Of a DNA stretch of 64,000 bases, positions 8,601 to 64,000 are shown one piece after another. The stretch is taken from positions 61,878,001 to 61,942,000 of the forward strand of contig NC_086097.1 in NCBI RefSeq assembly GCF_963921235.1. The letters are read 5' to 3'. Below the pieces are notes generated by a model. It was not told where the DNA came from. It worked only from the letters and a program-made list of their open reading frames with translations, and did not search any database. The position numbers were made by a program, and so were the translations under genes. This stretch comes from Mobula hypostoma (Eukaryota). Position 1 is the stretch's first letter; every line of letters starts with the position of its first letter.

Positions 8601-10102
8601 AGAGGCTGGAGACTGGTGGAGAGGCTGGAGACTGGAGGCGAGGCGAGGCGAGGCTGGAGACTGGAGACTTGAGGCGAGGCGAGGCTGGAGACTGGAGACG
8701 AGGTGAGGCGAGGCTGGAGACTGGAGACTGGAGACGAGGCGAGGCTGGAGACTGGAGACTTGAGGCGAGGCTGGAGACTGGAGACGAGGCGGGGCGAGGC
8801 TGGAGACTGGAGACTTGAGGCGAGGTGAGACTGGAGACTGGAGACTGGAGGCGAGGCTGGAGACTGGAGACTTGAGGCGAGGCTGGAGACTGGAGACTTG
8901 AGGCGAGGCGAGGCTGGAGACTGGAGACTTGAGGCGAGGCTGGAGACTGGAGACTGGAGGCGAGGCGAGACGAGGCTGGAGACTGGAGACTTGAGGCGAG
9001 GCGAGGCTGGAGACTGGAGACGAGGTGAGGCGAGGCTGGAGACTGGAGACTGGAGACTTGAGGCGAAGCTGGAGAATGGAGACTGGAGACTTGAGGCGAG
9101 GCTGGAGACTGGAGACTTGAGGCGAGGCTGGAGACTGGAGACTTGAGGCGGAGCGAGGCTTGAGTCTGGAGACTTGAGGCGGGGCGAGGCTTGAGTCTGG
9201 AGACGAGGCGGGGCGAGGCTTGAGTCTGGAGACGAGGCGGGGCGAGGCTTGAGTCTGGAGACGAGGCGGGGCGAGGCTTGAGTCTGGAGACGAGGCGGGG
9301 CGAGGCTGGAGACTGGAGACGAGGCGGGGCGAGGCTGGAGACTGGAGACTTGAGGAGGGGCGAGGCTGGAGACTGGAGACGAGGTGGGGCGAGGCTGGAG
9401 ACTGGGGACGAGGCGGGGCGAGGCTGGAGACTGGAGACTTGAGGCGAGGCTGGAGAATGGAGACTGGAGACTTGAGGCGAGGCTGGAGACTGGAGACTTG
9501 AGGCGAGGCGAGGCTGGAGACTGGAGACTTGAGGTGAGCCTTGGCAGGCTCCTCCTGGGCAGGGCACGGATCACCTGGGCAGGGTGCGGATCACCACCCA
9601 ACAGAGGCAACAGACAGGAAGGACAGAACCAACCCCAGGTAACGGCAAGACGGCCTGGCTTACTTGGGCGGAGGCAAGAGACAGGAAGGGAGCTAGGTAC
9701 AGGGTGGCTTCAGGACCAGACAACAAGACAAGGCAAGGCTACTGGCAAAGCAAGGCAAGACGAGAACTTCAGTCGAGGCAAGAGTTACCTGCAAGACAAG
9801 GCAGGGCTTCTGGCAAAGCAAGGCAAGACAGAACTTCAGGCGAGGCGGGAGTTACTTGCTAGACAATGTAGGGCTTCAGGCGAGGAAACAGAAGGCAGGG
9901 GAAGGGATGCAAGGAGTAAGGACAAGAACAATCCAGCAACCGTGCCCTGGTCTTAGAGGTATTTATGCAGCCAGTCACAACTAGCATCAGCTGCCTCAAT
10001 TAACTCAACAAGGACAGAAACAGGGTAGATAGGAAAACCTGGAAAAGGTTGATGGACCGGACCGTGAACTGGAATACGGACTTCATGGACCGGACCATGA
10101 CA
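2626..10102 (-). mobile_element. Solo LTR (Gypsy-type) containing a giant internal minisatellite
   Basis: Termini TGTCAT (2626) and ATGACA (10102) are inverted; 5-bp flanks GACCA (2621-2625) and GACTA (10103-10107); TATA-like CATAAATA on minus near 9960-9967; no internal coding domains. Confidence 0.8.
2860..9538. repeat. ~6.7-kb compound minisatellite built from GAGGC / GGGGC / GGAGACT / GGAGGCT words (29- and 31-bp main units)
   Basis: Directly visible units GAGGCGAGGCGAGGCTGGAGGCTGGAGACTT (31 bp) and GAGGCGGGGCGAGGCTGGAGACTGGAGAC (29 bp); strongly purine-rich plus strand. Confidence 0.98.
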
Positions 10103-10970: not shown

Positions 10971-11745
10971 GTGTGCTGTTTTTCCCTATGTCCCAATAAC
11001 TTTGGTAGATAGCATGAGGGATTCTGAAATTAATGGGAAAAGATATCTAAAGAGGCAGGCTTCAATGGTGGTTAATTTAGCACAGTCAAGTCTCTTGCAA
11101 ATATTTAGTTGTAGTTCTTGATTTATTCATAAGTTAATGGTGAACTTTATGAGAATGGTACATCTACATTTCTGTCTCAGCTGAATTAGGTCCACAACCC
11201 CATGCTTAAATATGTGAACTACAAAAGAATGAGTAATCCCTCCAGCTCCAGCCCGATAAACCTACAGCCTTACAAAATTCTGCTGTCTCTGAATTGATGT
11301 CACATTCCCTTATTGTAGTTTATATCCTGACTAATGTCACTTTCACCCAAGCAGCCTTTGCTGAAACCCAAGTGTCTCAACTCAGAAGTTCTCTTAATGG
11401 TACTGTCTGACCCACTGAGCTGCTCCAGCATCTTGTTTGTATTGCTCTAGATTTCCAGCATTTCCAGTGTCTGTGAACCTGAACGGTTGTCATTGCACAA
11501 GCATTTATTCCTTCCATCACCAGTGCAGAGTGGATATTCTATAAAATGTTCTGCTGTTCTCACTAGGATGCTCTGTGAAACCTTTCAAACCTGGAAACTC
11601 TACGGAAGTGTGGATAGATGGGAACACCACCAAATGTATGTTCCACATGAACCAGATTGATCTGCAAATGGATTGCTTTATTCTAATTTGTTATTGACCT
11701 AAATCTTACAATTTCCTACCCCAGGAACTGAGGATGTAGGTTCTT

Positions 11746-13426
11746 TAGAACTGTGTAAGGTAAGGGAAACAAGTAGAGTAGTTATGGAAACTATGATGAT
11801 TAAAGAAGGGGAAGTACTGGCGCTTTTAAGGGATATAAAAGTGGATAAGTCTCTGGGTCCTGACAGGATATTCCCTAGGACCTTGAGGGAAGTTAGTGTG
11901 GAAATAGCAGGGGCTCTGACAGAAATATTTCAAATGTCATTAGAAATGGGGATGGTGCCAGACAATTGGTGTATTTCTCATGTTGTCCCATTGTTTAAAA
12001 AGGGTCCTAAGAGTAAACCTAGCAATTATCGGCCTGTGAGTTTGACGTCAGTGGTGGGTAAATTGATGGAAAGTATTCTTAGAGATGGTATATATAATTA
12101 TCTTGATAGGCAGTGTCTGATTAGGAAGAGTCAACATGGATTTGTGCGTGGAAGATCATGTTTGACAAATGTTACTGAATTTTTTGAAGAGGTTACTAGG
12201 AAAGTTGATGAGGTTAAAGTGGTGGGTGTTGTCTATATGGACTTCAGTAATGCCTTTGACAAGGTTCCACATGGAAGGTTAGTTAGGAAGATTCAATCGT
12301 TAGGTATTAATATTGAAGTAGTAAAATGGATTCAGCAGTGGCTGGATGGGAGACGCCAGAGAGTAGTGGTGGATAACTGAATGTCAGATTGGAGGCTAGT
12401 GTCCAGTGGTGTGCCTCAGGGATCTGTACTGGGTCCAATGTTGTTTGTCATATACATTAATGATCTGGATGATGGGGTGGTAAATTGGATGAGTATGTAT
12501 GCAGATGATACTAAGATAGGTGGAGTTGTGGACAATGAAGTAGGTTTTCAAAGCTTGCAGGGAGATTTAGGCCAGTTAGAAGAGTGGGCTGAAAGATAGC
12601 AGATGGAGTTTATTGCTGATAAATGTGAGGTGCTACATTTTAATAGGACTAATCAAAATAGGACATACAGGGTAAATGGTCAGGCATTGAAGAATGCAGT
12701 AGAACAGAGGGATCTAGCACTAATGATGCATAGTTCCCTGAAGGTGGAATCTCATGTGGATAGGGTGGTAAAGAAAACTTTTGGTATGCTGGCCTTTATA
12801 AATCAGAGCATTGAGTATAGGAGTTGGGATGTAATGTTGAAATTGTACAAGGCATTGGTGAGGCCAAATTTGGAGTATTGTGTACAGTTCTGGTCACCGA
12901 ATTATAGGAAAGATGTCAACAAAATAGAAAGAGTACAGAGAAGATTTACTAGAGTGTTACCTGGGTTTCATCACCTAAGTTACAGAGAAAGGTTGAACAA
13001 GTTGGGTCTTTATTCTTTGGAACGTAGAAGGTTGAGGGGGGACTTGACAGAGGTATTTAAAATTATGAGGGGGATAGATAGAGTTGACGTGAATAGGCTT
13101 TTTCTATTGAGAGTGGCGGAGATTCAATCAAGAGGACATGAGTTTAGAGTTAAAGGGCAAAAGTTTAGGGGTAACATGAAGGGGAATTTCTTTACTCAGA
13201 AAGTGGTAGCTGTGTGGAACGAGCTTCCAGCAGAAGTGGTTGAGGCAGGTTCGATGTTGTAGTTTAAAGTTAAATTGGACAGGTATATGGACAGGAAAGG
13301 AACGGAGGGTTATGGGCTGAGTGCAGGTCGGTGGGACTAGGTGAGAGTAAGAGTTCAGCACGGACTAGAAGGGCCATGATGGCCTGTTTCCATGTTGTCA
13401 TTGTTATATGGTTATATCGTTACATA
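11746..13426 (+). mobile_element. CR1-clade LINE, 5'-truncated, RT region through 3' tail
   Basis: ORFs 11784-12380, 12381-12599 and 12603-13262 share one frame, separated only by stops (YADD, QGSVLGP). GTTATAT-like tail; possible imperfect TSD TTAGAACTG/TTAGAGCTG. Confidence 0.93.
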
Positions 13427-21737: not shown

Positions 21738-23414
21738 ATGAAATTAAATTTGCTGTTGACACGACACTGATAGGCCTAATCTCAAATAATAATGAGTTAG
21801 CCTACAGCGAAGAAGTCACCCAGACACAGTGGTGTCAAGAAAACAACCTCACCTTCAATGGCGCAAAAGCAAAGGAGCTGGTTGTGGACTGCAGGAGGAA
21901 TGGAGACAGGCTAACCCCTCTTGACATCAATGGATCTGGGATTGAGAGGGTGAACAGCTTTAATTCCTTGGCATAAACAACACCAAGGATCTCACATAGT
22001 CTGTACAGCACCTCTTTCACCTCAGATGGTTGAAGAAGTTTGGTTATGGGCCACCAAATCCTACGAACTTTCTAAAGGGGCATAATTCAGAGCATCCCAA
22101 TTGGCTGCATCACTGCCTAGTATGGGAACTGTACTTCCCTCAATCGCAGGACTCTGCAGAGAGTGGTGCGGACAGCCTAGCGCATCTGTAGATGTAAACT
22201 TCCCACTATTCAGGACATTTACAGTGACAGGTGTGACGAGAATACACATAAAATTAAGATGTTTGCTGGCCTAGGTTAGCATCAGTGACATCAGCAAGTG
22301 GTCTGCCACCTGCCCTCAGGGGAAGGAGAGATAAGGAACAATGGAGCAGCGTCTGGAGATGTGTAATGAAGGAACGGGGGAGAGAGAGCTGTCTGGAGCG
22401 GCTCCCCCCTTTGAACCTTGAACTGTTTGAAGTGATGGACAGGCCATGCCCCAGCAGGGGGATAAAAAGGGACAGGTTCGCTAAGGCAGACACACACGCC
22501 ACCCGAGGTAACGAGACCCTGGAAGCGGTACGCTTCTCACGAGTCGGTGGGAAGTATCAGACAACGGCCAGGGTGGAAAGGTATGATCAGCGGGAACCCG
22601 GTGTGTGTCCGCCCTTGCCTGGGTGCCGGGTTCACTTCAGAGGATCGACCGCATCTGGAGGAGGGGTCACAGTCGGTGACCTCAGGTGACATCACCAAGG
22701 ACCTGCCCAAAAAGCTGTTTGTGAGCCATATCGCTGGTCTGTGAGTGAAGCCGTGTCTGAATGATCAGTTGTTCCTGTTCTCTCTCTCTCCCCCCCCCCA
22801 CGTTGTCCATCGCCATGGCAACGATTACTGCGAACTAAACTACTAAACTGGACTGAACTTTGAGTCACTTTGAAATTTGGTCATTTACCCCTAGACAACG
22901 ATAGAGCTTGATTGATGCTGTTATCTTAATTCTGGGCACATGTGTGTTTATCATCGCTGAACTGTTGCATTTATTATCCTTTCGATTATTGTGTTGCTTG
23001 TTTCTTTAATAAAACTTTCTTAGTTCTAGTACTCCAGACTCCAACTGAGTGATCCATTTCTGCTGGTTTGGCAACCCAGTTACGGGGTACGTAACACAGG
23101 TGTGTAAAAAGGGCCCAAAGGATCATTGGGAACCTGAGTTACCCCAACCACAAATTGTTCCAGCTGCTACTATCTGGGAAACAGTATCGCAGCATAAAAG
23201 CCAGGACCAACAGGCTCCGGGACATCTTCCACTAGGCCATCAGACTGCTTAACTCACGTTGAAACAGCTGTATTTCTATGTCCTGTTGTACATACTATTT
23301 ATTATAAATTACCATAAACTGTACACTACACATAGTCAGAGTTGTAACGCAAAGATTTTTATTCCTCATGTATATGAAGGATGTAAGTAATTAAATCAAT
23401 TCAATTCAATTCAA
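21738..23414 (+). mobile_element. Rex1/Babar-type LINE 3' fragment split by a solo LTR
   Basis: KFAVDTTLIGLISNNNELAY..WCQENNL; resumes after 23100; (TTCAA)n tail at ~23395-23414. Confidence 0.8.
22232..23096 (+). mobile_element. Solo LTR of the Gmr1-like family
   Basis: TG..CA ends, perfect 4-bp TSD CAGG (22228-22231, 23097-23100), highly similar to the reverse complement of LTRs 54846-55701 and 58848-59702; TATA-like GATAAAA ~22461 and AATAAA ~23008. Confidence 0.95.
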
Positions 23415-37437: not shown

Positions 37438-39628
37438 CTACTTTTCCCTTTCAGGGTTCTTTTGAAGACCCTGACCTGGAATTACACGCTGACTTTGGTT
37501 CTTTGTGGGAATGGGACCCATTCCCAGGGTTTCACAATTAGTCATTATCTGATATGCCTGGGGTTCTAAGAGTTCAGCTTGCCTTTGGAGGACTAAGATC
37601 TTGAGGCTCTGGAGATGGGCAGATTGAAGGTCGGTGTCCCAACAGACTGGTGTGTTGTGGGAGCTGGAAGATCTTTGGCTGTAGGCCCAGATACCTGAGA
37701 TCTCTGGGCACAGAGCTCGGAAAAACTGACGCAACAAACTTTTAACATCGTAAACCAACGAGTTGTTTGTCATGTCTCCCGTCTCACTATGAGACGGAGA
37801 CACCTCTTTCTCCCTTATTAGGGAAAAAGAGAACCTGTGGTATGTTGAATACCGGCTGAATGCATAGTCTTTGAAGTACTGCAAGTCTGTGTCAACAGAC
37901 AATAGACAATAGGTGCAGGAGTAGGCCATTCGGCCCTTCGAGCCAGCAACGCCATTCACTATGATCATGGCTGATCATCCACTATCAGTATCCAGTTCCT
38001 GCCTTATCCCTATAACCTTCGATTCCGCTATCTTTAAGAGCTCTATCTATCTCTTTCTTGAAAGCATCCAGAGACTTGGCCTCCACAGTCTTCTCGGGCA
38101 GAGCATTCCATATATCCACCACTCTCTGGGTGAAAAAGTTTTTCCTCAACTCGTTTCTAAATGGCCTACTCCTTATTCTTAAACTGTGGCCTCTGGTTCT
38201 GGACTCACCCATCAGCGGGAACATGCTTCCTGCCTCCAGCATGACCAATCCCTTAATAATTTTATATGTTTCAATAAGATCCCCTCTCAGCCTTCTAAAT
38301 TCCAGAGTATACAAGCCCAGTTGCTCCAATCTTTCAACATATGACAGTCCCACCATCCCAGGAATTAACCTCGTGAACCTATGCTGCACTCCCTCAATAG
38401 CAAGAATGTCCTTCCTCAAATTTGGAGACCAAAACTGCACACAGTACTGCAGGTGTGGTCTCACCAGGGCCCTGTACAGCTGCTGAAGGACCTCTTTGCT
38501 CTTATACTCAGTTCTCCTTGTTATGAAGGCCAGCATGCCATTAGCTCTATTCACTGCCTGCTGTGCTTGCATCCTTGCTTTCAATGACTGATGTACAAGA
38601 ACACCTAGATCTCGTTGTACTTCCCCTTTTCCTAACTTGACTCCATTTAGATAATAATTTGACTTTCTGTTCTTAACACCAAAGTGGATAATCTCACATT
38701 TATCCACATTAAACTGCATCTGCCATGCATCTGCCCACTCACCCATCCTGTCCAAGTCACCCTGCAATCTCATAACATCCTCCTCACATTTCACACTGCC
38801 ACCCAGCTTTGTCTCATTGGCAAATTTGCTGATGTTACTTTTAATTCCCTCATCGAAATCATTAATATATATTGTAAACAGCTGTGGTCCCAGCACTGAA
38901 CCTTGTGGTACCCCAATGGTCACTGCCTGTCATTCCGCAAGGGACCCGTTAATCGCTACTGTTTGTTTTCTGTCAGCCAGCCAATTTTCAATCCATGTCA
39001 GTACTCTGTCCTCAATACCATGTGCCCTAATTTTGCCCACTAATCTCCTATGTGGGACTTTATCAAAGGATTTCTGAAAGTCCAGGTACACTACATCCAC
39101 TGGTTCTCCCTTGTGTATTTTAATAGTTACATCCTCAAAAAATTCCAGAAGATTAGTCAAGCACGATTTCCCCTTCGTAAATCCATGCTGACTCGGACCG
39201 ATCCTGTTACTGCTATCCAGATGGGTTGTAATTTCATCTTTTATAATTGACTCCAGCACCTTTCCCACCACCGACATCAGGCGCACCGGTCTATAATTCC
39301 CTGCTTTCTCCCTTCCTCCCTTCTTGAAGAGGGGGACAATATTAGCTACCCTCCAATCCACGTCTTTGCTGTTGATTTTGCTGTGTGCTTGAATGCTTGG
39401 TGGCGGGTGCTGATGTTTTTTTTTGCCAGTGTGAGGGGCAGGGATCGTTGCTTGCTGCTGCTTACGCGCGGGAGGGAAGGGAGCTGGGGGTAACTTTGGG
39501 GTTCTAGCATTTAAGTGTTATTCATTCTTCTGGGCACTCCTCTGTTTTTGTGGATGGTTGCAAAGAGGAAGCATTTCAGGATGTATATTGTATACATTTC
39601 TCTGACATTAAATGTACCTTTGAAACCT
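37438..39628 (+). mobile_element. Non-autonomous retroposon (37438-37893 plus 39362-39628) split by a younger CR1
   Basis: Non-CR1 sequence on both sides of the inner CR1, joined at ..GTGTC|GTCTTTG; ends ATTAAATGTACCTTTGAAACC. Confidence 0.55.
37894..39361 (-). mobile_element. Young 5'-truncated CR1 LINE
   Basis: ORFs 38930-39361 and 37985-38923 are in one frame with a single stop; (CTATTGT)n tail at ~37894-37911. Confidence 0.93.
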
Positions 39629-44201: not shown

Positions 44202-46166
44202 AATTCTCATCCGAGAGGGTTCAGGGGCTGCAGAGTTGCTAATAGGGAATTTATTGAATGCATAGTGTCCATTTGGTGTGATAAAGGTTGTGAGGTTCTG
44301 TGACTCAGGAAATAAACAGATCTGCCAGAACCCTGAGTTTGCATCTAGTTTGATGAAGCACTTGCTCCAATCTGCATACCCAATGTGTGCTCAACAGAGG
44401 ACACAATAAACTTCTCCCACCGCATTGCATTATTCAATTTTGTAAGATCAACACATATCCTCACTGTGACATCTGGCTTGGGAACAAGAACTATATACGC
44501 ACACAGTCAGTAGGTCCATTCAAACTAGTTTTGATGTCAAGTGTCTCCCTTTTGGTTGTTCTCCAATCTTGGCAACTTACTTGAAAATGTTTCCTCACCA
44601 TACAAGGAAACATAATCAGTGCAATATTAATTGTGGTGCTCTCTGAATGCTTGGCCTTTATATAGAAACATAGAAAATAGGTGCAGGAGTAGGCCATTCA
44701 GCCCTTCAAGCCTGCACCACCATTCAGTACGATCATAGCTGATCATCCAACTCAGAACCCTGTACCTGCCTTCTCTCCATACCCACTGATCCCTTTAGCC
44801 ACAAGGGCCATATTTAACTCCCTCTTAAATATAGCCAATGAACTGGCCTCAACTGTTTCCTGTGGCAGAGAATTCCACAGATTCACCACTCTCTGTGTGA
44901 AGAAGCTTTTCCTCATCTCGGTCCTAAAAGGCTTCCCCTTTGTCATCAAACTGACCCCTCGTTCTGGACTTCCCCAACATCGGGAACAATCTTCCTACAT
45001 CAAGCCTGTCCAATCCCTTTGGAATTTTATATGTTTCAATCAGATTGCCCCTCAATCTTCTAAATTCCAGAGAGCACAAGCCTAGTCGATCCACTTTTTC
45101 ATCATCTGAAAGTCCTGCCACCCCAGGAATCAATCTGGTGAACCTTCTTTGTACTCCCTCTATGGCAAGAATGTCTTTCCTCAGATTAGGGGACCAAATC
45201 TGCACACAATACTCCAGGTGTGGTCTCACCAAGGCCTTGTACAACTGAAGTAGTACCTCCCTGCTCCTGTACTCAAATCCTCTTGCTATGAATGCCAGCA
45301 TACCATTAGACTTTTTCACTGCCTGCTGTACCTGCATGCCCACTTTCAATGACTGGTGTATAATGACACCCAGGTCTCGTTGCACCTCCCCTTTTCCTAA
45401 TCGGCCACCATTCAGATAACAATCTATTTTCCTGTTCTTGCCACCAAAGTGGATAACCTCACATTTATCCACATTAAATTGCATCTGCCATGAATTTGCC
45501 CACTCACCTAACCTATCCAAGTCACCCTGCAACCTCTTAGCATCCTCCTTACAGCTAACACTGCTGCCCAGCTTCGTGTCATCTGCAAACTTGGAGATGC
45601 TGCATTTAATTCCCTCGTCTAAGTCATTAATATATATTGTAAACAACTGGGGTCCCAGCACTGAGCCTTGTGGTACCCCACTAGTTACTGCCTGCCATCC
45701 TGAAGAGGTCCCATTTATTCCCACTCTTTGCTTCCTGTCTGTCAACTAATTCTCTATCCACATCAATACCATATCCCCAATACCATGTGCTTTAAGTTTG
45801 CACACTAATCTCCTGTGTGGGACCTTGTCAAAAGCCTTTTGAAAATCCAAATATACCATATCCACTGGTTCTCCCCTATCCATTCTACTAGTTACATGCT
45901 CAAAAAATTCTACGAGATTCGTCAGACATGATTTTCCTTTCACAAATCTATGCTGACTTTGTCCAATGATTTCACTGCTTTCCAAATGTGCTGTTATCAC
46001 ATCTTTGATAACTGACTCTAGCATTTTCCCCACCACCGATGTCAGGCTAACCAGTCTATAATTCCCCGGTTTCTCTCTCCCTCCTTTTTTAAAAAGCCGG
46101 GTTACATTAGCCGCCCTCCAATCCTCAGGAACTAGTCCAGAATCTAAAGAGTTTTGAAAAATTATC

Positions 46167-48354
46167 TTTTCCTCTCTTTCGTGGTACTCGACAAGGCTGT
46201 CCTCTTAGTCCCCTATTATTTGATATTGCATTAGAACCTCTTGCAATTGCTATTCGAGAATCTTCAAATATTACTGGGATAACTCGGGGATTAAAGTCCC
46301 ATAAATTATCACTCTATGCTGATGATTTACTTTTATATATTTCTAATCCTGAGAGATCTATTCCTGTTGTTTTAGAGTTATTAGCACAATTTGGTCTTTT
46401 CTCAGGTTATAAATTAAATCTTAGTAAGAGTGAACTTTTTCCGATTAATAAACATCTTTCCTTATATTATAAATTTCCATTTAAATTGATTAATAATTAC
46501 CTTTCATATCTTGGGATTAAAATTACTTGTAAACATAAAGATTTATTTAAGACTAACTTTTTACCATTAATAGACCATATTACTCAACTTTCATCTAAAT
46601 GGTTTCCCTTATATTTAACTTTGATTGGTCGTATTAATGCAGTTAAGATGTTTTTTTTGCCAAAATTTTTATATGTGTTTCAGGCATTACCAATTTTCGT
46701 TCCTAAATCTTTTTTTGATAAAGTCGACTCTAAAATTTCTTCATTTATTTGGCAGAATAAGAATCCGAGACTGGGTAAAATACATTTACAGAAAGCTAAG
46801 AGAGATGGAGGTTTAGCATTACCTAACTTTAGATTTTATTATTGGGCTATTAATATTCGACATATGAAATTTTGGTTACTTGACCGGGATATACTATCTA
46901 TTCCTAAATGGGTAGCATTGGAATTACAATCTGTTCAGGGTTATACACTTGGTTCTATTTTAGGTTCATCTCTTCCTTTTGATTCGAAACGCTTTAAGCA
47001 GGTCTCTAACCCGATCGTTAAATATGCTTTGCGTATTTGGTTTCAATTCAGAAAATTTTTTGATCTTAATCAATTCGGGTTAGCGATTCCTATTTTAGGT
47101 AACATATTTTTTCCTCCCTCTTTTACGGATCGCGCTTTTCAAACTTGGAAGACTAAGGGTATTTTACGGTTTTTGGATTTATTTTTAGATGGTTCCCTTA
47201 TGTCTTTTGAACAATTATCTAATAAATATAACTTATCAAGAATACATTTTTTTAGATATTTACAAGTTAGAAATTTCCTAAGTACTATACTTTCTTCCTT
47301 TCCAATGCTTCCTCCTATATATATTTTAGATTCGATAATTAACCTTAATCCATGTCAGAAAGGTGCATCGGCTATGATTTATAATATTATTATGAAACTT
47401 AGGAAAGCTCCATTTGATAAGATTAGGGTAGATTGGGAACAGGAATTGGGGCTTACCATTTCTGTGGATGATTGGGGGCAGATTTTACAATTAGTTAATA
47501 CTTCCTCTATTTGTGCTAAACATTCCCTAATTCAATTTAAAGTGGTGCATAGAGCACATATGTCCAAAGATAAGTTAGCGCGTTTTTACTCGCATATTAA
47601 TCCTTTCTGTGATAGATGTTCGGGGCAGATAGCCTCTTTAACTCATATGTTTTGGTCTTGCCCTACTTTGGAAACTTTTTGGAGAGATATTTTCAATATT
47701 ATTTCTAAGGTATTAAATATAGATATCTCTCCTCACCCTATTACTGCTATCTTTGGACTACCTAAAATTTCTAGTAATCTTTCCCCTTCAGCCCGTAGAA
47801 TGATTGCATTTCTTACTTTAATGGCGAAAAGATGTATTTTACAACATTGGAAAGAGCTTAATGCTCCAACTACCTTTTTTTGGTTTTCTCAGACGATTTT
47901 ATGTTTGAATCTGGAGAAAATTAGAAGTAACCTTTATGATTCTTCATTTAAATTTGAACAGATTTGGGGACCTTTTATTCGATATTTTCATTTAATGTAA
48001 TATTTACCCTTCTTGTTTTTTTTCACTGTTTTAATGGAGGTGGGGATTGAGGACGTGATTTTAAGTTTAACTCTGTTTGGTTTCAAGTTAGCCCATTGCT
48101 TTGCTTTGCTTTTAGTTAGTTGCACGGTGGGTTTTTTTTGGGGTTTTTTTTTCTTTTTTTCCATTGATATATATAAAATCTAGTATACTATTATGTTATC
48201 TTGGTTTCTTATGCTTAAATTACATTGTTTGTAGTATTTTCTTTTTGGTATTGTTATCTTTTGGAATTTTATTATACTTTAACATTGTATTAATGTTTAT
48301 ATGGCTTACCTTTTTTGTATACTTACTCAATAAAAAGATTTAAAAAGAAAGAAA
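46167..48354 (+). mobile_element. 5'-truncated L1-clade LINE, young insertion
   Basis: 11-bp TSD GAAAAATTATC (46156-46166, 48355-48365) at a TTTT/GAAAAA site; AATAAA at 48329-48334; A-rich (GAAA)n tail. Confidence 0.95.
46168..48000 (+). CDS. L1 ORF2 C-terminal part (RT from [11 protein letters not shown] and YADD to the Cys-rich CDRC..HMFWSC domain), no start codon
   Basis: The 504-aa ORF 46486-48000 extends upstream in frame without stops to the truncation point by manual translation ([29 protein letters not shown]). Confidence 0.88.
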
Positions 48355-50199
48355 GAAAAATTATCACTAATGCAGCCACTATTTCTTGGGCTACTTCCTT
48401 AAGCACTCTGGGATGCAGACCATCTGGCCCTGGGGATTTATCTGCCTTTAATCCCTTCAATTTACCTAACACCACTTCCCTACTAACATGTACTTCCCTC
48501 AGTTCCTCCATCTCACTAGACCCTCTGTCCCCTACTATTTCCGGAAGATTATTTATGTCCTCCTTAGTGAAGACAGAACCAAAGTAGTTATTCAACTGGT
48601 CTGCCATGTTTTTGTTCCCCATGATCAAGTCACCTGTTTCTGACTGTAAGGGACCTACATTTGTTTTAACCAATCTTCTTCTTTTCACATATCTATAAAA
48701 GCTCTCACAGTCAGTTTTTATGTTCCCTACCAGCTTTCTCTCATAATCTTTTTTCCCTTTCCTAATTAAGCCCTTTGTCCTCCTCTGCTGGACTCTGAAT
48801 TTTTCCCAGTCCTCAGGTGTGTCGCTCTTTCTGGCTAATTTGTATATTTCTTCTTTGGAATGGATACTATCTCTAATTTCCCCCGTCAGCCATGGGTGCA
48901 CTACGTTCCCTGGTTTGTTCTTTTGCCAAACTGGGATGAACAATTGTTGTAGTTCATCCATGTAATCTTTAAATGCTTGCCATTGCATATCCACCATCAA
49001 CCCTTTAAGTATCATTTGCCAGTCTATCTTAGCTAACTCAAGTCTCATACCTTCAAAGTTACCCTTCTTTAAGTTCAGAACCTTTGTTACTGAATTAACT
49101 ATATCACTCTCTATCTTAATGAAGAATTCCACCATATTATGGTCACTCTTACCTAAGGGGCCTCGCACGACAAGATTGCTAACTAACCCCTCCTCACTGC
49201 TCAATACCCAGACTAGAATGGCCTGCTCTCTAGTTGGTTCCTCGACATATTGGTTCAGAAAACCATGCTGCATACATTCCAAGAAATCCTCTTCCTCAGC
49301 ACCCTTACCAATTTGGTTCACCCAATCTATATGTAGATTGAAGTCACCCATTATAATTGCTGTTCCTTTATTGCACGCATTTCTAATTTCCTGTTTAATG
49401 CTATCCCCAACCTCACTACTACTATTAGGTGGCCTGTGCACAACTCCCACCAGCGTTTTCTGCCCTTTAGTGTTATGCAGCTCTACCCATATCGATCCCA
49501 CATCCTCTCGGCTAATCTCCTCTCTAACCAGCAATGCTACCCACCTCCTTTTCTTTCATGTCTATCCCTGCTGAATATTGAATATCCCTGAATGCTGAGC
49601 TCCCTTCCTTGATCACCTTGGAGCCATGTCTCTGTGATCCCAACTATATTATATTCATTAATAACTATCTGCAGTTTCATTTCATCCACCTTGTTACGAA
49701 TGCTCCTTGCATTGACACACAAAGCCTTCAGGCTTGCTTTTACAGCACTCTTAGCCCTTATACAATTATGCTAAAAAGTGGCCCTTTTTAATTTTTGCCC
49801 TGGATTTGCCAGCCTGCCACTTTTACTTTTCACCTTACTACTTTTTGCTTCTACCCTCTTTTTACACCCCTCTGTATCTCTGCACTTGTTCCCATCCACC
49901 TGCAACATTACTTTAAATCCTCCTGAACAACAGTAGCAAACGCTCCCCCTAGGACGTTGGATCCAGTCCAGCCCAGGTGCAGACCATCCTGTTTGTACTG
50001 GTCCCACCTCCTCCAGAACTACGTTCCAATGCCCCAGACATCTGAATCCCTCCCCCTTGCACCATTTTTCAAGCTACGTATTCATCTGAAATAGCCTCCT
50101 ATTTTTACTCTGACTAGCAAGTGGCACTGGTAGTAATCCAGAGATTATTACCTTTGTGGTCCTACTTTTTAGTTTATCTCCTAACTCCCTAAATTCATA

Positions 50200-53754: not shown

Positions 53755-54047
53755 CATTTACTTAGAGATGGAGTGTGGAACAGGCCTGTCAGGCCCACTG
53801 ACTAGCACCGCTCAGCAACCCAGCTGTTTAACCCCAGCCTAATCACAGGACAATTTACAATGACCAACTAACCTACTAACCGATACGTCTTTGGACTACG
53901 GGAGGAAATTGGAGCACCCGATGGAATCCCACGCACACACAGAAAAAATGTACAAACTTTCTTACAGAGGACGCTGGAATTGAACTCCGAATCTGATGCA
54001 CCGAGCTGTAATAGTGTCATGCTAACTGCTACGTTACTGTGGTGTGC
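53755..54047 (-). mobile_element. tRNA-derived V-domain SINE (HE1-like)
   Basis: Minus strand: A-box-like TAGCAGTTAGC, B-box GAGTTCAATTCC, V-domain-like GGGTGCTCCAATTTCCTCCC. Confidence 0.8.
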
Positions 54048-55701
54048 TATGTTACTTACTTGTGTTGACATTCTGTCCCTCAGTGTTTCCAATTTAAAAT
54101 TTTCATTTTCACCTTTAAATGAACTTTAGTCTACCAAACTCTATAAATGGCAGCAGTGTGCAACTCCCAGAGCTTGATTATATCTCCTGTTAAGACTATG
54201 TCAAACCCTCTGCCTCTCCCACCGTTCTTCAAAACATTCTGCAGAACCCAACCCTTTGGTCATCCCTAATATATCCTCCCTGCCTTGGAATCCACCTTAT
54301 CCAGAGGGATTCACTGTCTAGGGATGTTGTTTCTATGTTAGAGGTACTACATAGATGTTCTTATATCCCTGTGAAGCTGAAGATCAGAAGGGGTCAGACT
54401 TGAGTTTTTTTCTGCACTGCCTCTGAAACCTTAATGTCTCCAATGACTTACTCTCAAAACGAGATCCAGTATAGTCAAACCCGTACATTCTGCAGGTTAC
54501 ATGATATTCTCCACCATTAAACAAAATTGATTTTGTGGCCTCAGCTTGCTGTTAGCTTGCTTTTGACTGCCGCTGTACCATGAAAGAATATCATGGATGC
54601 TGGATCGAATATCCTCACACAGATATCCTTCAATTTCACCGGTAGCTCCTTCAAACCATTTATGCATTTCCAATCTTAATTTGCAAGGGACAATATCACA
54701 TTAACCTATATAAAATTTCACCCCCTTTGTTTCATTCACATCCAGGTTTCATCCCAATCTTCATGTCCTTCCCTTGTACATTGTTTCACCTCCAATTAAG
54801 AAGTTTAAAGCATTTGGTCACACTCCTAATATTTCTCATATGCCTTGTTACGTACCCCGTAACTGGGTTGCCAAACCAGCAGAAATGGATCACTCAGTTG
54901 GAGTCTGGAGTACTAGAACTAAGAAAGTTTTATTAAAGAAACGAGCAACACAGTAATCGAAAGGATAATAAATGCAACAGTTCAGCGATGATAAACGCAC
55001 ATGTGCACAGAATTAAGATAACAGCATCAATCAAGCTCTATCGTTGTCTAGGGGTAAATGACCAAATTTCAAAATGACTCAAAGTTCAGTCCAGTTCAGT
55101 TCACAGTAATCGTTGCCATGGCAATGGACAACGTGGGGGAAGAGAGAGATAGAACAGGAACAACTGATCATTCAGAACACTGTTTCACTCACAGACCAGC
55201 GAGATGGCTCACAAACAGCTTTTGGGCGGGTCCTTGGTGATGTCACCTGAGGTCACCGACTGTGACCCCTCCTCCAGATGCGGTCGATCCTCTGCAGTGA
55301 ACCCGGCACCCAGGCAAGGGCGGACACACACCGGGTTCCCGCTGATCGTACCTTTCCACCCTTGTCGTTGTCTGATACATCTCACCCACTCGTGAGAGGC
55401 GCACCGCTTCCAGGGTCTCGTTACCTCGGGTGGCGTGTGTGTCCTGCCTTAGCGAACCTGTCTCTTTTTATCCCCCTGCTGGGGTATCGCCTGTCCATCA
55501 CTTCAAACAGTTCAGGGTTCAAAGGGGGGAGCCGCTCCAGACAGCTCTCCCTCCCACATCCCTTCATTACACATCTCCAGACGCTGCTCCATTGTTCCTT
55601 ATCTCTCCTTCCCCTGAGGGCAGGTGGCAGACCAACTGCTGATGCCACTGATGCTAGCCCAGGCCAGCAAACATCTTAATTTTATGTGTATTCTCGTAAC
55701 A

Positions 55702-55713
55702 CTTCCCCCCTTT
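55702..55713 (-). promoter_or_regulatory. Polypurine tract
   Basis: AAAGGGGGGAAG immediately before the 3' LTR. Confidence 0.9.
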
Positions 55714-55873
55714 AAGGATTTTTACCGGGAGGTAAAAATTACAAACATGACTACATTATCTGATACATACACAATATACATCTTTATCAGCTATTTGGCT
55801 AATACAGAGAATTTGAAGCTGTCAACACCTTGACAGACAGTCATCACATTTTCTGTTCCTTTTACACGTGTTA

Positions 55874-58582
55874 TTAATAATCCCTTAGACCAGGCTCCAA
55901 CTCAGCAAACTTCATAGTGGCCAAAAACACTGATGAATTGCGACCAATGTAACCTCTCATTTGGTTTTGTCCCGGACCACAATAACAAGGGTCGTCCCAT
56001 TCCGACTCAATTTTCTCTCGCAAGGGCTTAGTAGGAGGGGGACGGGTATTGACCGCAGAGTTATTGCAAAACTTCCTGCAGTACCCCACCATCTCCAAGA
56101 GCCTTCTGAGGGCCCTCTTGTCTGTCGGGGTTGGGAGGACAGCGATAGCCTGCACTGTAGCTTGCATCACTGCCAGCTGCCCCTGTGTCACCACAATTCC
56201 CAGGTAAGTGACCCTCGTGTGGCCGAATTCATTTTTTTCAAGGTTCACTATCAAACTGGCTTCAGACAGCCGTATTAAATTGCCAATACACACCTCTGTG
56301 GTCATCAGCCCTTTAGTCACTGAATTACTCAATATATATGAGTGTTCTTTACTGGGCTGCCCTATTGTAACAGACATAACCCAACGTCCCAGTTCTTTGC
56401 ATTTCCTCGGGACAATCAAACACATAGGTGCGAGTCGTTTAATTACTCCTTCTAAAGATTCACTTTGTTCGGGGATTAAGGGAGAGACCTTATCAGTAGA
56501 CCTGGCCAAAACAATAGCCTTCTCCCATCTGACCGATCCCATCCTAATCTTTTCAAAATGGTTCTTTTCTCTTATCAGGGGGCCCCTAGCTTCATTGATT
56601 TCCACGCTAACACCGACTAGGTTTGTTAGCATATCAAAAGCCGGTGACCGTCTCAGTTCGCGTCGGTCATGATCAATAACATTTTTCCCCCTGGGCAGCC
56701 GGTAAATCTCTTTCATGATTCCACCAACTGTTTCCTCCAGCACCGCAAAATGTCCACCGGGGGGTACCTCATGGGCCATGTTAAAAACCTTATCCCCATA
56801 ACTCTTTTGCACCACCCCCCATTCCTCATCTGCGGGTACTGTACTTGATTTCCCTTTCTTCCTTAGCACTTCCTCCTCCACACAATAGCTTGTCAAGGCT
56901 GTGTCAGAGAGAGCGGTCTCTGCCAAAACCATCAGCCCCTCGTCTCGCTCCTGCGTCTGCACAAATTCTTTCCTGGCTACTGCTACATCTGTCCCAGCTC
57001 CCTCACTACCTCTTATCTCACTACACCCTGTCTCATACAAGGTTGACAGAAATGTTTCAGCCAAATTCACCATCGGGGGCCCGCGATGAACCTGTGAGTC
57101 CATGGGCCGGGCCTCAATGCTGGCAGGTTGACCCGTCAGTCTCACGACTGGGAACACGATTCCTCCGGCGATGTCATTACCGAGCAAGACTTCCACGTCT
57201 TTCATCGGTAATTCGGACCTCACCCCGATCGTGACTAGTCCAGAGACCAGGTTGCTCTGTAAGTGTATCTGGTGCACAGGGACTGACTCTGTCCCTTCCC
57301 CAACACCTTTGACCTCTACCTCCCCAGTCTGGGTCTCTGAGCTAAACTCTAATACACTCTTCAGTATTAGTGACTGACACGCTCCCGTGTCTCTCCAGAT
57401 CCGCACTGGAACTGGTTTTAACCCCTCCTTCACTGACACCAGTCCGGCCGAGATAAACCTCTCGCGCCCTTCCTGGACTTTTTCAGACCTGTCCTTCCCT
57501 AGCGGTTCACTTAACAGCTCGATACAGCCATTCCAAATTTCCGCTTTTCCTTTCCCCGTCTCCTTCCTTGGGGCAAAGCACCTGGACGCAAAGTGTCCGA
57601 CTTTCCCACAATTATAACAGACAACCCCAGGAGACTTCCTACCAGACTGCTCCCGGTCTACCTTATCCTTTTCACTAGTCCCCGGCTTACTTTCTGACTT
57701 TTCCGGCGGACTCTCCCCTCCGTCCTGACTACCCTTCTGGTAGCCTTTACTCGGGGCAAACTTCATTTTATGCGTCAACGCATACTCATCCGCTAACTTA
57801 GCAGTTGCGGCTAACGTGGCTGCCTCTTTCTCATCGAGGTAGGGTCTCATACCCTCAGGGACACAACCTTTAAACTGCTCAATCAGAATCAGCTGCAGCA
57901 GTCTGTCATAATCCCCCTCTACCCCTTTCGAGGCGCACCAACGCTCACAATATGTCTGCATCTCACGAGCAAACTCCAAATACGTGCGGTCCCACCGCTT
58001 CCTCGCATTCCGGAACCTCTGCCGGTATGCCTCCGGGACCAACTCATAAATCCTGAGGATGGCCTCTTTCACCACCTCATACTTCTGGGCATCTTCCGCG
58101 GATAAAGCGGAGTAAGCTTCTTGGGCCTTCCCTTTCAGTACACTCTGAAGTAAAACAACCCACTTATCCCTCAGCCAGTCCTGACTTATAGCCACCTTTT
58201 CGAAGTGGAGGAAGTACCGATCCACGTCGGTATCGTCAAAAGGGGGAACCAGCCTTACCTCCTGGGTCGCCCGGAACCCTCCACCTTGGTTCGGCACGAG
58301 CCCCTGCTCGGCCCTTATCTTTAACTTCTCCAGCTCAAATTCCCTTTCCCTCTGTTTCTCCTCTCTCTCCAACTGTCTGTCCCTCTCTTTCTCTTCTCTC
58401 TCCATCTGTCTGTCCCTCTCTTTCTCTTCTCTCTCCATCTGTCTGTCCCTCTCTTTCTCTTCGTGTTCTAACTGCCGTACCCGGAACTCGTGCTCGAGTC
58501 TCAGTTTTTCAAGCTGTACCTGTACCGCGTCTCCAGCAGGTTTTTCAATAGACACCTCCCCCAGCTCACCTTGGGGAAACAC
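55874..58582 (-). CDS. SCAN-domain Gag, CCHC zinc knuckle, aspartic protease and degenerate Pol relic (902 aa; true start probably ATG 58748 with a frameshift near 58611)
   Basis: PEAYRQRFR..LILIEQF..AKLADEY (SCAN-like, aa ~182-270), CYNCGKVGHFASRC (aa 322-335), RDTGA..LLGND (protease), then integrase-Zn, RT and RNase H relics in that order. Confidence 0.88.
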   Translation of the reverse strand: MFPQGELGEVSIEKPAGDAVQVQLEKLRLEHEFRVRQLEHEEKERDRQMEREEKERDRQMEREEKERDRQLEREEKQREREFELEKLKIRAEQGLVPNQGGGFRATQEVRLVPPFDDTDVDRYFLHFEKVAISQDWLRDKWVVLLQSVLKGKAQEAYSALSAEDAQKYEVVKEAILRIYELVPEAYRQRFRNARKRWDRTYLEFAREMQTYCERWCASKGVEGDYDRLLQLILIEQFKGCVPEGMRPYLDEKEAATLAATAKLADEYALTHKMKFAPSKGYQKGSQDGGESPPEKSESKPGTSEKDKVDREQSGRKSPGVVCYNCGKVGHFASRCFAPRKETGKGKAEIWNGCIELLSEPLGKDRSEKVQEGRERFISAGLVSVKEGLKPVPVRIWRDTGACQSLILKSVLEFSSETQTGEVEVKGVGEGTESVPVHQIHLQSNLVSGLVTIGVRSELPMKDVEVLLGNDIAGGIVFPVVRLTGQPASIEARPMDSQVHRGPPMVNLAETFLSTLYETGCSEIRGSEGAGTDVAVARKEFVQTQERDEGLMVLAETALSDTALTSYCVEEEVLRKKGKSSTVPADEEWGVVQKSYGDKVFNMAHEVPPGGHFAVLEETVGGIMKEIYRLPRGKNVIDHDRRELRRSPAFDMLTNLVGVSVEINEARGPLIREKNHFEKIRMGSVRWEKAIVLARSTDKVSPLIPEQSESLEGVIKRLAPMCLIVPRKCKELGRWVMSVTIGQPSKEHSYILSNSVTKGLMTTEVCIGNLIRLSEASLIVNLEKNEFGHTRVTYLGIVVTQGQLAVMQATVQAIAVLPTPTDKRALRRLLEMVGYCRKFCNNSAVNTRPPPTKPLREKIESEWDDPCYCGPGQNQMRGYIGRNSSVFLATMKFAELEPGLRDY
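58361..58463 (-). repeat. 33-bp coding tandem repeat x3 (EEKERDRQMER) in the Gag coiled-coil
   Basis: Visible in both DNA and translation. Confidence 0.9.
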
Positions 58583-58824
58583 TCCTTTAGATACATAGTG
58601 CTCTACAATAGCTGTGTATCTCCTCTCTCCTCATTGTCGACTTCACCTTGGCAAGATTCACCCGTTTGGCCACAGCTATCAATTCCGATTTCCTGGCATC
58701 TTCTAATGCCTCCAAGGTCGGCGCCTTTATAAATTCCTCAACCTCCATTTCTGCTGTTTGTCTTTTCTTTCTTTCGGGAATTTTAACCCAATCAATTTAC
58801 TCCGTCCCAAATTTAGCGTTCAAA

Positions 58825-58843
58825 ATCCCGGACGAGAACCCCA
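58825..58843 (-). promoter_or_regulatory. Primer-binding site, tRNA-Pro type
   Basis: TGGGGTTCTCGTCCGGGAT versus canonical TGGGGGCTCGTCCGGGAT, 4 nt after the 5' LTR. Confidence 0.88.
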
Positions 58844-60132
58844 CTTATGTTACGTACCCCGTAACTGGGTTGCCAAACCAGCAGAAATGGATCACTCAGT
58901 TGGAGTCTGGAGTACTAGAACTAAGAAAGTTTTATTAAAGAAACGAGCAACACAGTAATCGAAAGGATAATAAATGCAACAGTTCAGCGATGATAAACGC
59001 ACATGTGCACAGAATTAAGATAACAGCATCAATCAAGCTCTATCGTTGTCTAGGGGTAAATGACCAAATTTCAAAATGACTCAAAGTTCAGTCCAGTTCA
59101 GTTCGCAGTAATCGTTGCCATGGCGAGGGACATCGTGGGGGGAGAGAGAGATAGAATAGGAACAACTGATCATTCAGACACGGCTTCACTCACAGACCAG
59201 CGAGATGGCTCACAAACAGCTTTTGGGCGGGTCCTTGGTGATGTCACCTGAGGTCACCGACTGTGACCCCTCCTCCAGATGCGGTCGATCCTCTGCAGTG
59301 AACCCGGCACCCAGGCAAGGGCGGACACACACCGGGTTCCCGCTGATCGTACCTTTCCCCCCTTGTCGTTGTCTGATACTTCTCACCCACTCGTGAGAGG
59401 CGCACCGCTTCCAGGGTCTCGTTACCTCGGGTGGCGTGTGTGTGCTGCCTTAGCGAACCTGTCCCTTTTTATCCCCCTGCTGGGGTATCGCCTGTCCATC
59501 ACTTCAAACAGTTCAGGGTTCAAAGGGGGGAGCCGCTCCAGACAGCTCTCCCTCCCACATCCCTTCATTACACATCTCCAGACGCTGCTCCATTGTTCCT
59601 TATCTCTCCTTCCCCTGAGGGCAGGTGGCAGACCAACTGCTGATGCCACTGATGCTAGCCCAGGCCAGCAAACATCTTAATTTTATGTGTATTCTCGTAA
59701 CAGCCTTTATAACAATGGAAGAGAATATTGTGCGCATCAAATCTATGATGGCTTTTGGAACATTCTCATCAGCCCTTTTCCACATTTACCTTCCCGCAGC
59801 CTAATCTTTCCCTTATGGCCATCAACACCCTCCTGGTTTTCCTGTCATCTCTTAATTGTATTTGTCTGCAGAAATTAAGCAGACAGGGAGAAATGCTCCT
59901 TGTATGTCTAAGAATACTCAGATAAATACAATTCACCCATGGCAATACCGTGTTTTAAATCCTTTAAGCTTGTCCTGGAACTCCATCTCATTGATAATAG
60001 CCATTAAGCCAAGTTGCATTAACCCTGAGAATGAAGGTCATGTTGCCAATGCCTCCCCGAGTGAGCGTTGGGAAAGGAAAATCACAAAGTGCATTAACTA
60101 TTTACTTTGACCATCAGATTTTTTCAGGTCAG

Positions 60133-60438
60133 TATTTATTTATGAATTTGTGACACAGTGTGAGGTAGGCCATTCTGCCCCTTGAGCTCTGCTGTCCCAG
60201 CAACCCCTCAAACCTGATTAACCCTAATCTAATCATGGAAGATTTACAATGACCAGTTAACCTACCCAGTATATCTTTGGACTGTGGGAGGAAACCAGAG
60301 CACCCGGGGACAACGCATGCATTCCACAGGGAGGACGAAAGAGATTCTTTACAGAATGGTTTCGGAGTTGAACTCTGAACTAGGAAAGGCCCTGAGCTGT
60401 AGCAGCGTCACACTACCCACAATGCTACTGTGCTGCCC
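60133..60438 (-). mobile_element. tRNA-derived V-domain SINE (HE1-like), second copy
   Basis: Homologous to 53755-54047; GAGTTCAACTCC B box; CCGGGTGCTCTGGTTTCCTCCCACA. Confidence 0.8.
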
Positions 60439-62302: not shown

Positions 62303-64000
62303 ATAGAACATAGAACATAGAATAGTACAGCATATTACAGGTCCTTTGGCCCACAATGTTGTGCCGACCCTCAAACCCTGCCTCCCATATAACTCCCAAC
62401 CTTAAATTCCTCCATATACCTGTCTAGTAGTCTCTTAAACTTCACTAGTGCATCTGCCTCCACCACAGACTCAGGCAGTACATTCCACGCACCAACCACT
62501 CTCTGAGTAAAAAACCTTCCTCTAATATCCCCCTTGAACTTCCCACTCCTTACCTTAAAGCCATGTCCTCTTGTATTGAGCAGTGGTGCCCTGGAGAAGA
62601 GGCGCTGGCTATCCACTCTATCTATTCCTCTTAATATCTTGCACATCTCTATCATGTCTCCTCTCATCCTCCTTCTCTCCAAAGAGTAAAGCCCTAGCTC
62701 CCTTAATCTCTGATCATATTGCATACTTTCTAAACCAGGCAGCATCCTGGTAAATCTCCTCTGTACCCTTTCCAATGCTTCCACATCCTTCCTATAGTGA
62801 GGTGACCAGAACTGGACACAGTACTCCAAATGTGGCCTAACCAGAGTTTTATAGAGCTGCATCATTACATCGCGGCTCTTAAACTCTATCCCTCGACTTA
62901 TGAAAGCTAACACTCCATAAGCTTTCTTAACTACCCTATCCACCTGTGAGGCAACTTTCAGGGATCTGTGGACATGTACCCCCAGATCCCTCTGCTCCTC
63001 CACACTACCAAGTTTCCTGCCATTTACTTTGTACTCTGCCTTGGAGTTTGTCCTTCCAAAGTGTACCACCTCACACTTCTCCGGGTTGAACTCCATCTGC
63101 CACTTCTCAGCCCACTTCAGCATCCTATCATTGTCTCTCTGCAATCTTTGACAATCCTCTACACTACCTACAACACCACCAACCTTTGTGTTGTCTGCAA
63201 ACTTGCTAAATCCACCCTTCTACCCCCACATCCAGGTCGTTAATAAAAATCACAAAAAGTAGAGGTGCCAGAACAGATCCTTGTGGGACACCACTAGTCA
63301 CAACCCTGCAATCTGAATGTACGCCCTCCACCACGACCCTCTGCCTTCTGCAGGCAAGCCAATTCTGTATCCACCTGGCCAAACTTCCCTGGATCCCAAG
63401 CCTTATGACTTTCTGGATAAGCCTACCGTGCAGAACCCTGTCAAATGCCTTACTAAAATCCACTTAGATCACATCCACTGCACTACCCTCATCTATATGC
63501 CTGGTCACCTCCTCAAAGAACTCGATCAGGCTTGTTAGACACGATCTGCCCTTCACAAAGCCATGCTGCCTGTCCCTGATCAGACCATGATTCTCTAAAT
63601 GCCCAGAGATCCTATCTCTAAGAATCTTTTCCAACAGCTTTCCCACCACAGACGCAAGGCTCACTGGTCTATAATTACCCGGACTATCGCTACTACCTTT
63701 TTTGAACAAAGTGACAACATCCCTCCAATCCTCCGGTACCATTCCCGTGGACAACAAGGACATAAAGATCCTAGCCACAGGCTCAGCAATCTCTTCCCTC
63801 GCCTCGTGGAGCAGCCTGGGGAATATTCCGTCAGGCCCCGGGGACTTATCTGTCCTAATGTATTATAACAACTCCAACACCTCCTCTCCCTTAATATCAA
63901 CATGCTCCAGAACATCAACCTCGCTCATATTGTCCTCATCGTCATCAAGTTCCCTCTCATTGGTGAATACCGAAGAGAAGTATTCATTGAGGACCTCGTT
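62303..64000 (-). mobile_element. CR1-clade LINE RT and 3' end, runs off window end
   Basis: ORFs 63464-63778, 63206-63463 and 62371-63144 with CR1 motifs; (TTCTATG)n tail at 62303-62325. Confidence 0.93.

Follow-up and report, generated by a model that had tools for sequence, protein, structure and literature searches.

The window, a 64,000-nucleotide stretch of the Mobula hypostoma genome (NC_086097.1, positions 61,878,001 to 61,942,000), carries a minus-strand long terminal repeat (LTR) element spanning 54,846-59,702, which is read here, with moderate confidence, as a damaged member of a Gmr1-like family that is present in many copies in Mobula rays. This family has conserved Gag and protease, lost integrase and reverse transcriptase (RT), and held the wreck of its pol region in frame, likely because near-complete translation protects the RNA from nonsense-mediated decay. 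Its members present an open frame that has survived repeated deletion and extensive amino acid change, and selection on this open frame is well supported.

Structure and insertion site of the element

Both LTRs have the ends TGT...ACA, and the element and its solitary relative in the window are delimited as follows.

54,842..54,845, unstranded: left copy of the target-site duplication, 4 bp, present once at the empty site (X9 contig 25)
54,846..55,701, minus strand: 3' LTR, 856 bp, with one AATAAA at LTR position ~767
55,702..55,713, minus strand: polypurine tract (PPT), abutting the 3' LTR
58,818..58,843, minus strand: primer-binding site (PBS), starting with TGG, 4 bases inside the 5' LTR
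58,848..59,702, minus strand: 5' LTR, 855 bp
59,703..59,706, unstranded: right copy of the target-site duplication, 4 bp
22,232..23,096, plus strand: solo LTR of this family (94% alike), flanked by a separate 4-bp duplication at 22,228-31 and 23,097-100

The PBS resembles what we take to be a tRNA-Pro site; no tRNA gene was identified in the whole window, nor any Rfam match within 54,500-60,000. Run X1 contains both element-flank junctions, while one contig of run X9, from another, related organism, joins both flanks with a single copy of the duplication and represents the empty site. The two LTRs are 98.5% alike (12 mismatches and one gap in 856), and nine of these 13 differences are clustered within 81 bp (55,103-55,183; p 3e-7), outside of which the LTRs differ at only 4 of ~775 positions. 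Within the patch, the solo LTR, which is oriented opposite to the element, agrees with the left LTR at three positions and with the right LTR at six; judged from sequence comparison, the clustering suggests recombination between subfamilies or gene conversion. An earlier, sequence-only reading of this DNA had described a young element with near-identical LTRs, target-site duplication, PBS and PPT, and all of these hold, including its youth, with the qualification that LTR divergence is not a clean clock here because of the clustered differences.

Several other features of the window were recorded. A 6.7-kb tandem array at 2,863-9,538 (period ~31, ~224 copies) is strongly G-skewed and contains long spurious minus-strand open frames. 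Open frames with RVT_1, zf-RVT or endonuclease matches (734-1,579; 11,703-12,377; 37,988-38,929; 44,927-45,745; 46,111-47,997; 48,326-49,555) likely correspond to LINE fragments, and two further open frames of 282 and 220 codons (62,371-63,219, minus strand; 12,600-13,262, plus strand) have no Pfam match at E 0.001. Two 60-bp copies, 72% alike (53,876-53,935 and 60,262-60,321), flank the element at a distance and are probably an unrelated short interspersed repeat.

Gag and protease

The coding region of the window copy begins with the following features.

58,614..58,748, minus strand: first gag codons with the start codon, 45 codons in another frame, followed by a frameshift near 58,613 before the rest
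55,874..58,630, minus strand: open frame, stop to stop, 918 codons, without a start codon of its own
58,347..58,462, minus strand: 33-bp tandem repeat in gag, 3.5 copies, coding for a Glu/Arg-rich stretch of Gag
57,767..58,036, minus strand: SCAN-type capsid C-terminal domain (Pfam PF02023, E 1.4e-12)
57,578..57,622, minus strand: CCHC zinc knuckle (Pfam PF00098, E 4e-6)
57,131..57,460, minus strand: aspartic protease, with DTG at 57,391 and LLGND at 57,187

SCAN and the zinc knuckle are the only passing Pfam matches in the element: the search returned no rve, RVT_1 or RNase H match there, and no protease match either at 57,131-57,460 or in full-length relatives. The window copy keeps 33 of 39 conserved protease sites, as compared with 32 of 39 in the autonomous-type relative P0006, and the Glu/Arg-rich repeat of Gag varies in length between copies while staying in frame. 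Frameshift-aware alignment places the gag Met at 58,748, in a different frame from the 918-codon frame. Twelve of the 25 family proteins described below begin at this Met and read through the 58,613 position, and the break is thus no family-wide feature. Either a slip private to the window copy or an assembly error may account for it, and the window copy itself is likely dead owing to the break. The initial description of Gag, knuckle and protease as intact is accurate for the SCAN domain, the knuckle and the protease, but not for the 5' end of gag, where the frame is shifted and the long frame lacks its own start codon.

Remnants of the pol region

About 410 in-frame codons derived from pol follow the protease, and these can be assigned as follows.

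56,669..57,130, minus strand: protease-integrase linker and integrase zinc region, H..H kept and CC lost, 10 of 22 conserved sites
56,324..56,668, minus strand: degenerate integrase C-terminal tail, IN-RT linker and first RT residues (profile domain iE 0.0014 and alignment through P0180)
55,985..56,323, minus strand: RT remnant, comprising the pre-YIDD helix, CIGN, an 18-codon deletion, and the palm end and thumb, 30 of 43 conserved sites
55,910..55,984, minus strand: RNase H scrap, 25 residues, in frame, after a deletion of ~86 codons, 3 of 9 conserved sites
55,825..55,909, minus strand: old pol C-terminus, with three frameshifts near 55,909, 55,887 and 55,843 (alignment to P0183)

The segment at 56,324-56,668 is flanked by the deletions of the integrase core (~289 codons) and of the RT fingers and palm (128 codons); residues 644-786, which have no significant match with sliding 50-residue profiles from distant relatives, were assigned via the full profile (iE 0.0014) and P0180. 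CIGN, at 56,290, aligns with the YIDD of P0183 via the YIGD of P0180, and these two alignments rule out that it is a mere deletion junction. The RT remnant matches solved RTs weakly (E 0.002-0.003), and AlphaFold2 gave an uninformative model of the relic, with a mean pLDDT of 28.9 from 12 sequences. The family stop codon (55,876-55,874) lies 11 codons past the RNase H scrap, where P0183 continues for 37, and these last 11 codons are off-frame relative to the old pol.

Most of what had been read from the letters about this region agrees with the alignments to relatives: a pol region that is still one open frame (918 codons stop to stop, 58,630-55,874), an integrase that keeps H..H but has lost CC and its core, an RT that is mostly missing and reads CIGN at the YIDD position, a mere scrap of RNase H, and no stop until near the natural end. 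The order of the remnants, together with the SCAN domain, likewise bears out the attribution to Gmr1-like elements with integrase upstream of RT.

The family and its ladder of subfamilies

Protein and cluster searches yielded a set of 25 proteins that show the deleted structure of the window copy, or just the Gag-protease portion of it. They all come from Mobula hypostoma or M. birostris, and the earlier stages P0006, P0009, P0180 and P0184 are not counted among them; the nearest are more than 90% identical to the window element. A search of 1.84 billion representative proteins gave only three matches at E 1e-30 or better, all from Mobula and already recovered by the other searches. Five of the 25 are unbroken from the Met to the shared last residue, and 11 end at that same residue, three of these being only 78-81% alike in the relic. 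The remaining 14 end early (12 in the relic and two in Gag-protease), and the gene models of 13 start downstream of the gag Met. These proteins are automatic gene models, some ends of which may be splice artefacts, and database proteins are biased toward open frames. P0003 and P0004, encoded on different chromosomes, share a 14-residue off-frame tail ~100 codons early, which may reflect a truncated sub-lineage that transposed or a recurrent slip.

Element-derived NCBI proteins (P0001, P0037, P0041, P0042 and P0183) bear the host gene names MACC1, UBE2G2, PPM1Lb, trichohyalin-like and HSPB1-associated protein 1, and in Mobula hypostoma several copies carry gene-isoform annotations (MACC1, PPM1Lb, UBE2G2); such names probably arise from copies inside those loci or from composition matches.

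Contigs aligning to the element number 37,901 in run X1 and 14,889 in run X9, and the element is highly repeated in both organisms, bearing in mind that summed contig depth is not equal to copy number. The large deletions are not private to the window copy, as might have been the case, and are shared by many copies arranged in a ladder. An autonomous-type Mobula relative is represented by two fragments, P0006 and P0183; P0180 has all three large deletions (integrase core, ~289 codons; RT fingers and palm, 128; connection and RNase H, ~86) yet keeps YIGD and the following 18 residues; in P0176-P0179 the 18 residues after the YIGD position are gone; and the group of the window copy carries further small deletions. 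The tree of the RT block reproduces the order P0180, P0176-P0179, window group with 97-100% support at the main nodes; the trees contain only relatives found in the present searches, the RT tree leaving out two outgroups and the Gag tree P0182, in which the anchor is absent. This ladder is present in two Mobula species, conserved RT sites are lost stepwise along it (43, 38, 33 and 30 of 43), and in-frame deletions of 4-18 codons occurred repeatedly in the relic, in different subfamilies. At the protein level, two of the large junctions have short repeated residues on both sides, which would fit template switching.

Gag and RT motifs lie in a single frame in 42 of 50 full-length relatives, and full-length relatives from the sawfish Pristis have the same domain order, also in one frame. 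No intact Mobula helper was found among proteins of 939-2,680 residues.

Frame conservation and sequence drift

In frameshift-aware alignment, the stretch 57,124-55,982 aligns to P0006, P0180 and P0183 without any frameshift, the three frameshifts that are needed all falling in the last 28 codons of the old pol. The 12 net length changes of the relic (three large and nine small) are all whole codons, which answers the earlier question of whether each deletion is a multiple of three; the corresponding chance, (1/3)^12 = 2e-6, is counted on protein alignments, where paired compensating frameshifts are not separated.

The sequence within this frame has drifted. With Pristis as outgroup, changes in the window lineage and in the autonomous-type lineage stand at 2:4 in SCAN and 6:11 in the protease, as opposed to 15:3 in the integrase zinc region (p 0.008), 30:1 in RT (p 3e-8) and 9:1 in RNase H (p 0.02). 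For the same two lineages, branches measure 0.67 versus 0.06 substitutions per site in the RT block, and 0.23 versus 0.18 in Gag-protease. Extrapolated from a 97-residue block, a divergence of 0.53-0.67 substitutions per site should have produced 9-16 stops in 400 codons, and none is observed (chance 1e-4 or less); the most cautious estimate, based on 54 observed changes, gives just 2-3 expected stops (p 0.04-0.10).

A comparison of nine long copies gives 27 amino acid variants shared by at least two copies over 300 relic sites, against nine over 383 Gag-protease sites (p 2e-4), while variants of single copies are alike in number (36 in the relic, 34 in Gag-protease). Shared variants per site amount to 0.145 in the linker, 0.071 in RT and 0.028 at the end, RT and the end being reached by fewer copies.

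Sequencing reads, which are independent of annotation filtering, allowed classification of 55 frame variants among the 80 listed of 447 and 130 detected. Among those listed, shared variants in the relic comprise 24 nonsynonymous and eight synonymous changes and no stop, for a neutral expectation of 23-30% synonymous, and those in Gag-protease one nonsynonymous and four synonymous (p 0.03). The listed variants in codons 771-918 (nine nonsynonymous, two synonymous) all fit loose constraint. Six of the ten listed near-private differences of the window copy in the relic are synonymous (p 0.03), three of the six being CpG decay, and this excess leaves room for some protein constraint on the relic. 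As for small indels, none of those listed for run X1 (2% threshold, 5,514 contigs aligned) lies inside the relic frame, and those listed for run X9 include one frame-breaking insertion, at 3% of depth and 22 codons from the frame end; 1-base indels are common in the LTRs at the 10% threshold, and contigs can miss indels near their own ends. The listed deletion joints in reads net 33, 42 and 42 bases, i.e., multiples of three.

Altogether, the proposal that large deletions and heavy drift without stops reflect selection on frame openness is supported at the family level: Gag and protease are constrained, and the amino acids of the relic drift at a near-neutral rate. Stops and frameshifts accumulating at the neutral rate in the relic of other copies had been suggested as evidence to the contrary. 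Single copies do break, 12 of the 25 ending early in the relic, as apparently also happens in gag, but this is judged the wrong test, since selection acts on transposing lineages and not on inserted copies.

Comparison with known non-autonomous elements

By domain order and SCAN capsid, the family falls under the Gmr1-like definition: it combines a SCAN capsid (PF02023), integrase remnants upstream of RT and RNase H, TG...CA LTRs, a PBS, a PPT and a short duplication, and lacks the intact integrase DDE core, RT and RNase H of an autonomous member. Gmr1-like Ty3/Gypsy elements likewise have a SCAN-type capsid, with protease, integrase, RT and RNase H arranged downstream in this order (accessible part of bioRxiv 10.1101/2025.03.03.638093), whereas the ray element is without the integrase core, the RT fingers and palm and most of RNase H, the remnants being degenerate. 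No match among the relatives recovered carried the name Gmr1.

The mouse IAP 1-delta-1 element is a further parallel, being non-autonomous and successful, with an in-frame internal deletion that creates one fusion frame, as in the ray family, and its translation reportedly acts in cis; it differs in having a single deletion that cuts gag, so that Gag is needed in trans (available sections of PMC6466679). In the ray family, by contrast, both Gag and protease are complete and under constraint, and the frame has outlasted 12 length changes and ~0.5-0.7 substitutions per site. Wheat RLG_Quinta, TR-GAG and other semi-autonomous LTR families of plants also keep gag or gag and protease without working enzymes and need an autonomous partner, but have decayed and patchy pol remnants, a long in-frame pol relic not being described in the accessible portions of these reports (PMC13570524; PMC11302176). 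The ray family resembles them in its conserved gag-protease frame, unbroken in five of 25 proteins and frameshifted in the window copy, and departs from their lack of pol coding beyond gag and protease through its ~410 in-frame pol codons. Young LTR retrocopies with in-frame cargo have been reported and explained by their youth, according to the part of PMC5131818 at hand.

Since non-autonomous LTR elements that retain gag are already known, as is the in-frame fusion of IAP 1-delta-1, the initial label of an undescribed system is too strong. Neither the ray family nor a pol relic selected for its frame alone is reported in the literature covered; outside this coverage lie subscription journals, supplements and repeat libraries, where the family may be catalogued.

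Possible causes of the open frame

Escape from nonsense-mediated decay is the most likely cause that can be inferred for the open relic. Active copies of the family would make their own Gag and protease, and an intact relative would supply RT and integrase. Since 42 of 50 relatives carry gag and pol in one frame, the ancestor of the family was presumably a single gag-pol frame that could do without a stabilising element after gag, in contrast with RSV and MoMLV; retroviral RNAs with a long 3' UTR need an RNA stability element or readthrough (available text of PMC7566565). The family stop codon lies 172 bases ahead of the 3' LTR. If the single AATAAA serves as the poly(A) signal, a stop right after the protease would extend the 3' UTR from ~0.9 kb to ~2.2 kb, and less RNA would be left to package. 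Few descendants would then be expected from lineages carrying early stops, and frame-keeping deletions would cost nothing; breaks near the frame end are tolerated, as a position rule predicts. Against decay avoidance speak the early tail of P0003 and P0004, the synonymous excess of the window copy and the lower variation in the RT and end segments; plant gag-only families, moreover, spread without such a tail (accessible part of PMC13570524).

The main rival, possible but doubtful, is that the tail matters as a polypeptide and not by its sequence, a long C-terminal extension on Gag-protease helping it to bind its own RNA and recruit helper Gag-Pol, or timing protease activation. This would predict the same pattern of an open frame with loose sequence, and the data do not separate it from decay avoidance. 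The IAP 1-delta-1 gag-pol fusion, which works in cis according to the sections of PMC6466679 available, the C-terminal end common to 11 of 25 proteins and the slight synonymous excess among the window copy's own differences are all consistent with such a tail. However, repeated in-frame shrinkage by 4-18 codons in different subfamilies implies that an exact length is not needed, cis binding requires Gag, which is intact even without the tail, and the final 11 codons are off-frame relative to the old pol.

It is improbable that part of the relic, for instance the RT thumb or the H..H piece of integrase, retains a specific function such as binding nucleic acid or helper subunits. The 30 of 43 conserved sites kept in the RT remnant, its weak match to solved RTs and its having fewer shared variants than the linker would fit this possibility, but RT shows the strongest rate increase of all blocks (30:1; 0.67 substitutions per site), its conserved sites are lost steadily along the ladder, and all 11 listed read variants in codons 771-918 fit loose constraint.

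Still less credible is chance combined with ascertainment, whereby a single master lineage would have kept its frame open by accident and been noticed for that openness. Both the sequence-only reading and protein databases favour open frames, and single copies break freely (14 of 25 end early, one early break being common to two copies), but it is hard to reconcile with a lineage in which 12 length changes all preserve the frame (2e-6) and 9-16 expected stops are missing (1e-4 or less), with the unfiltered reads, which give the same picture, and with the confinement of three frameshifts to the last 28 codons of the old pol. Equally far-fetched is that the frame is maintained by the host for some use of the fusion protein, which might act as a decoy spoiling helper particles: gene-isoform annotations exist for several copies in Mobula hypostoma, but the element is multi-copy and still inserting, as the empty site in X9 indicates, single copies decay, the window copy included, and the constraint is seen on shared and not on single-copy variants.

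Implications

This family separates two pressures that are usually joined, one acting on what a protein means and the other simply on keeping its frame open. Whether nonsense-mediated decay, or packaging coupled to translation, shapes which defective retrotransposons spread has until now been argued chiefly on mouse IAP and retroviral mutants, and can be tested here in a natural setting. The family also carries a warning, since within repeats a long open frame whose sequence is relaxed can be taken for a host gene, as the MACC1, PPM1Lb and UBE2G2 isoform labels illustrate.

It can be proposed, tentatively, that RNA surveillance filters defective LTR elements in ray genomes, so that the filler between protease and 3' LTR, here a dead pol, must be translatable without having to be meaningful, and that such elements breed long, neutral, translated frames at high copy number. 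If this is true, they would be a standing source of new chimeric protein sequence, and the family would be a fossil ladder of the process.
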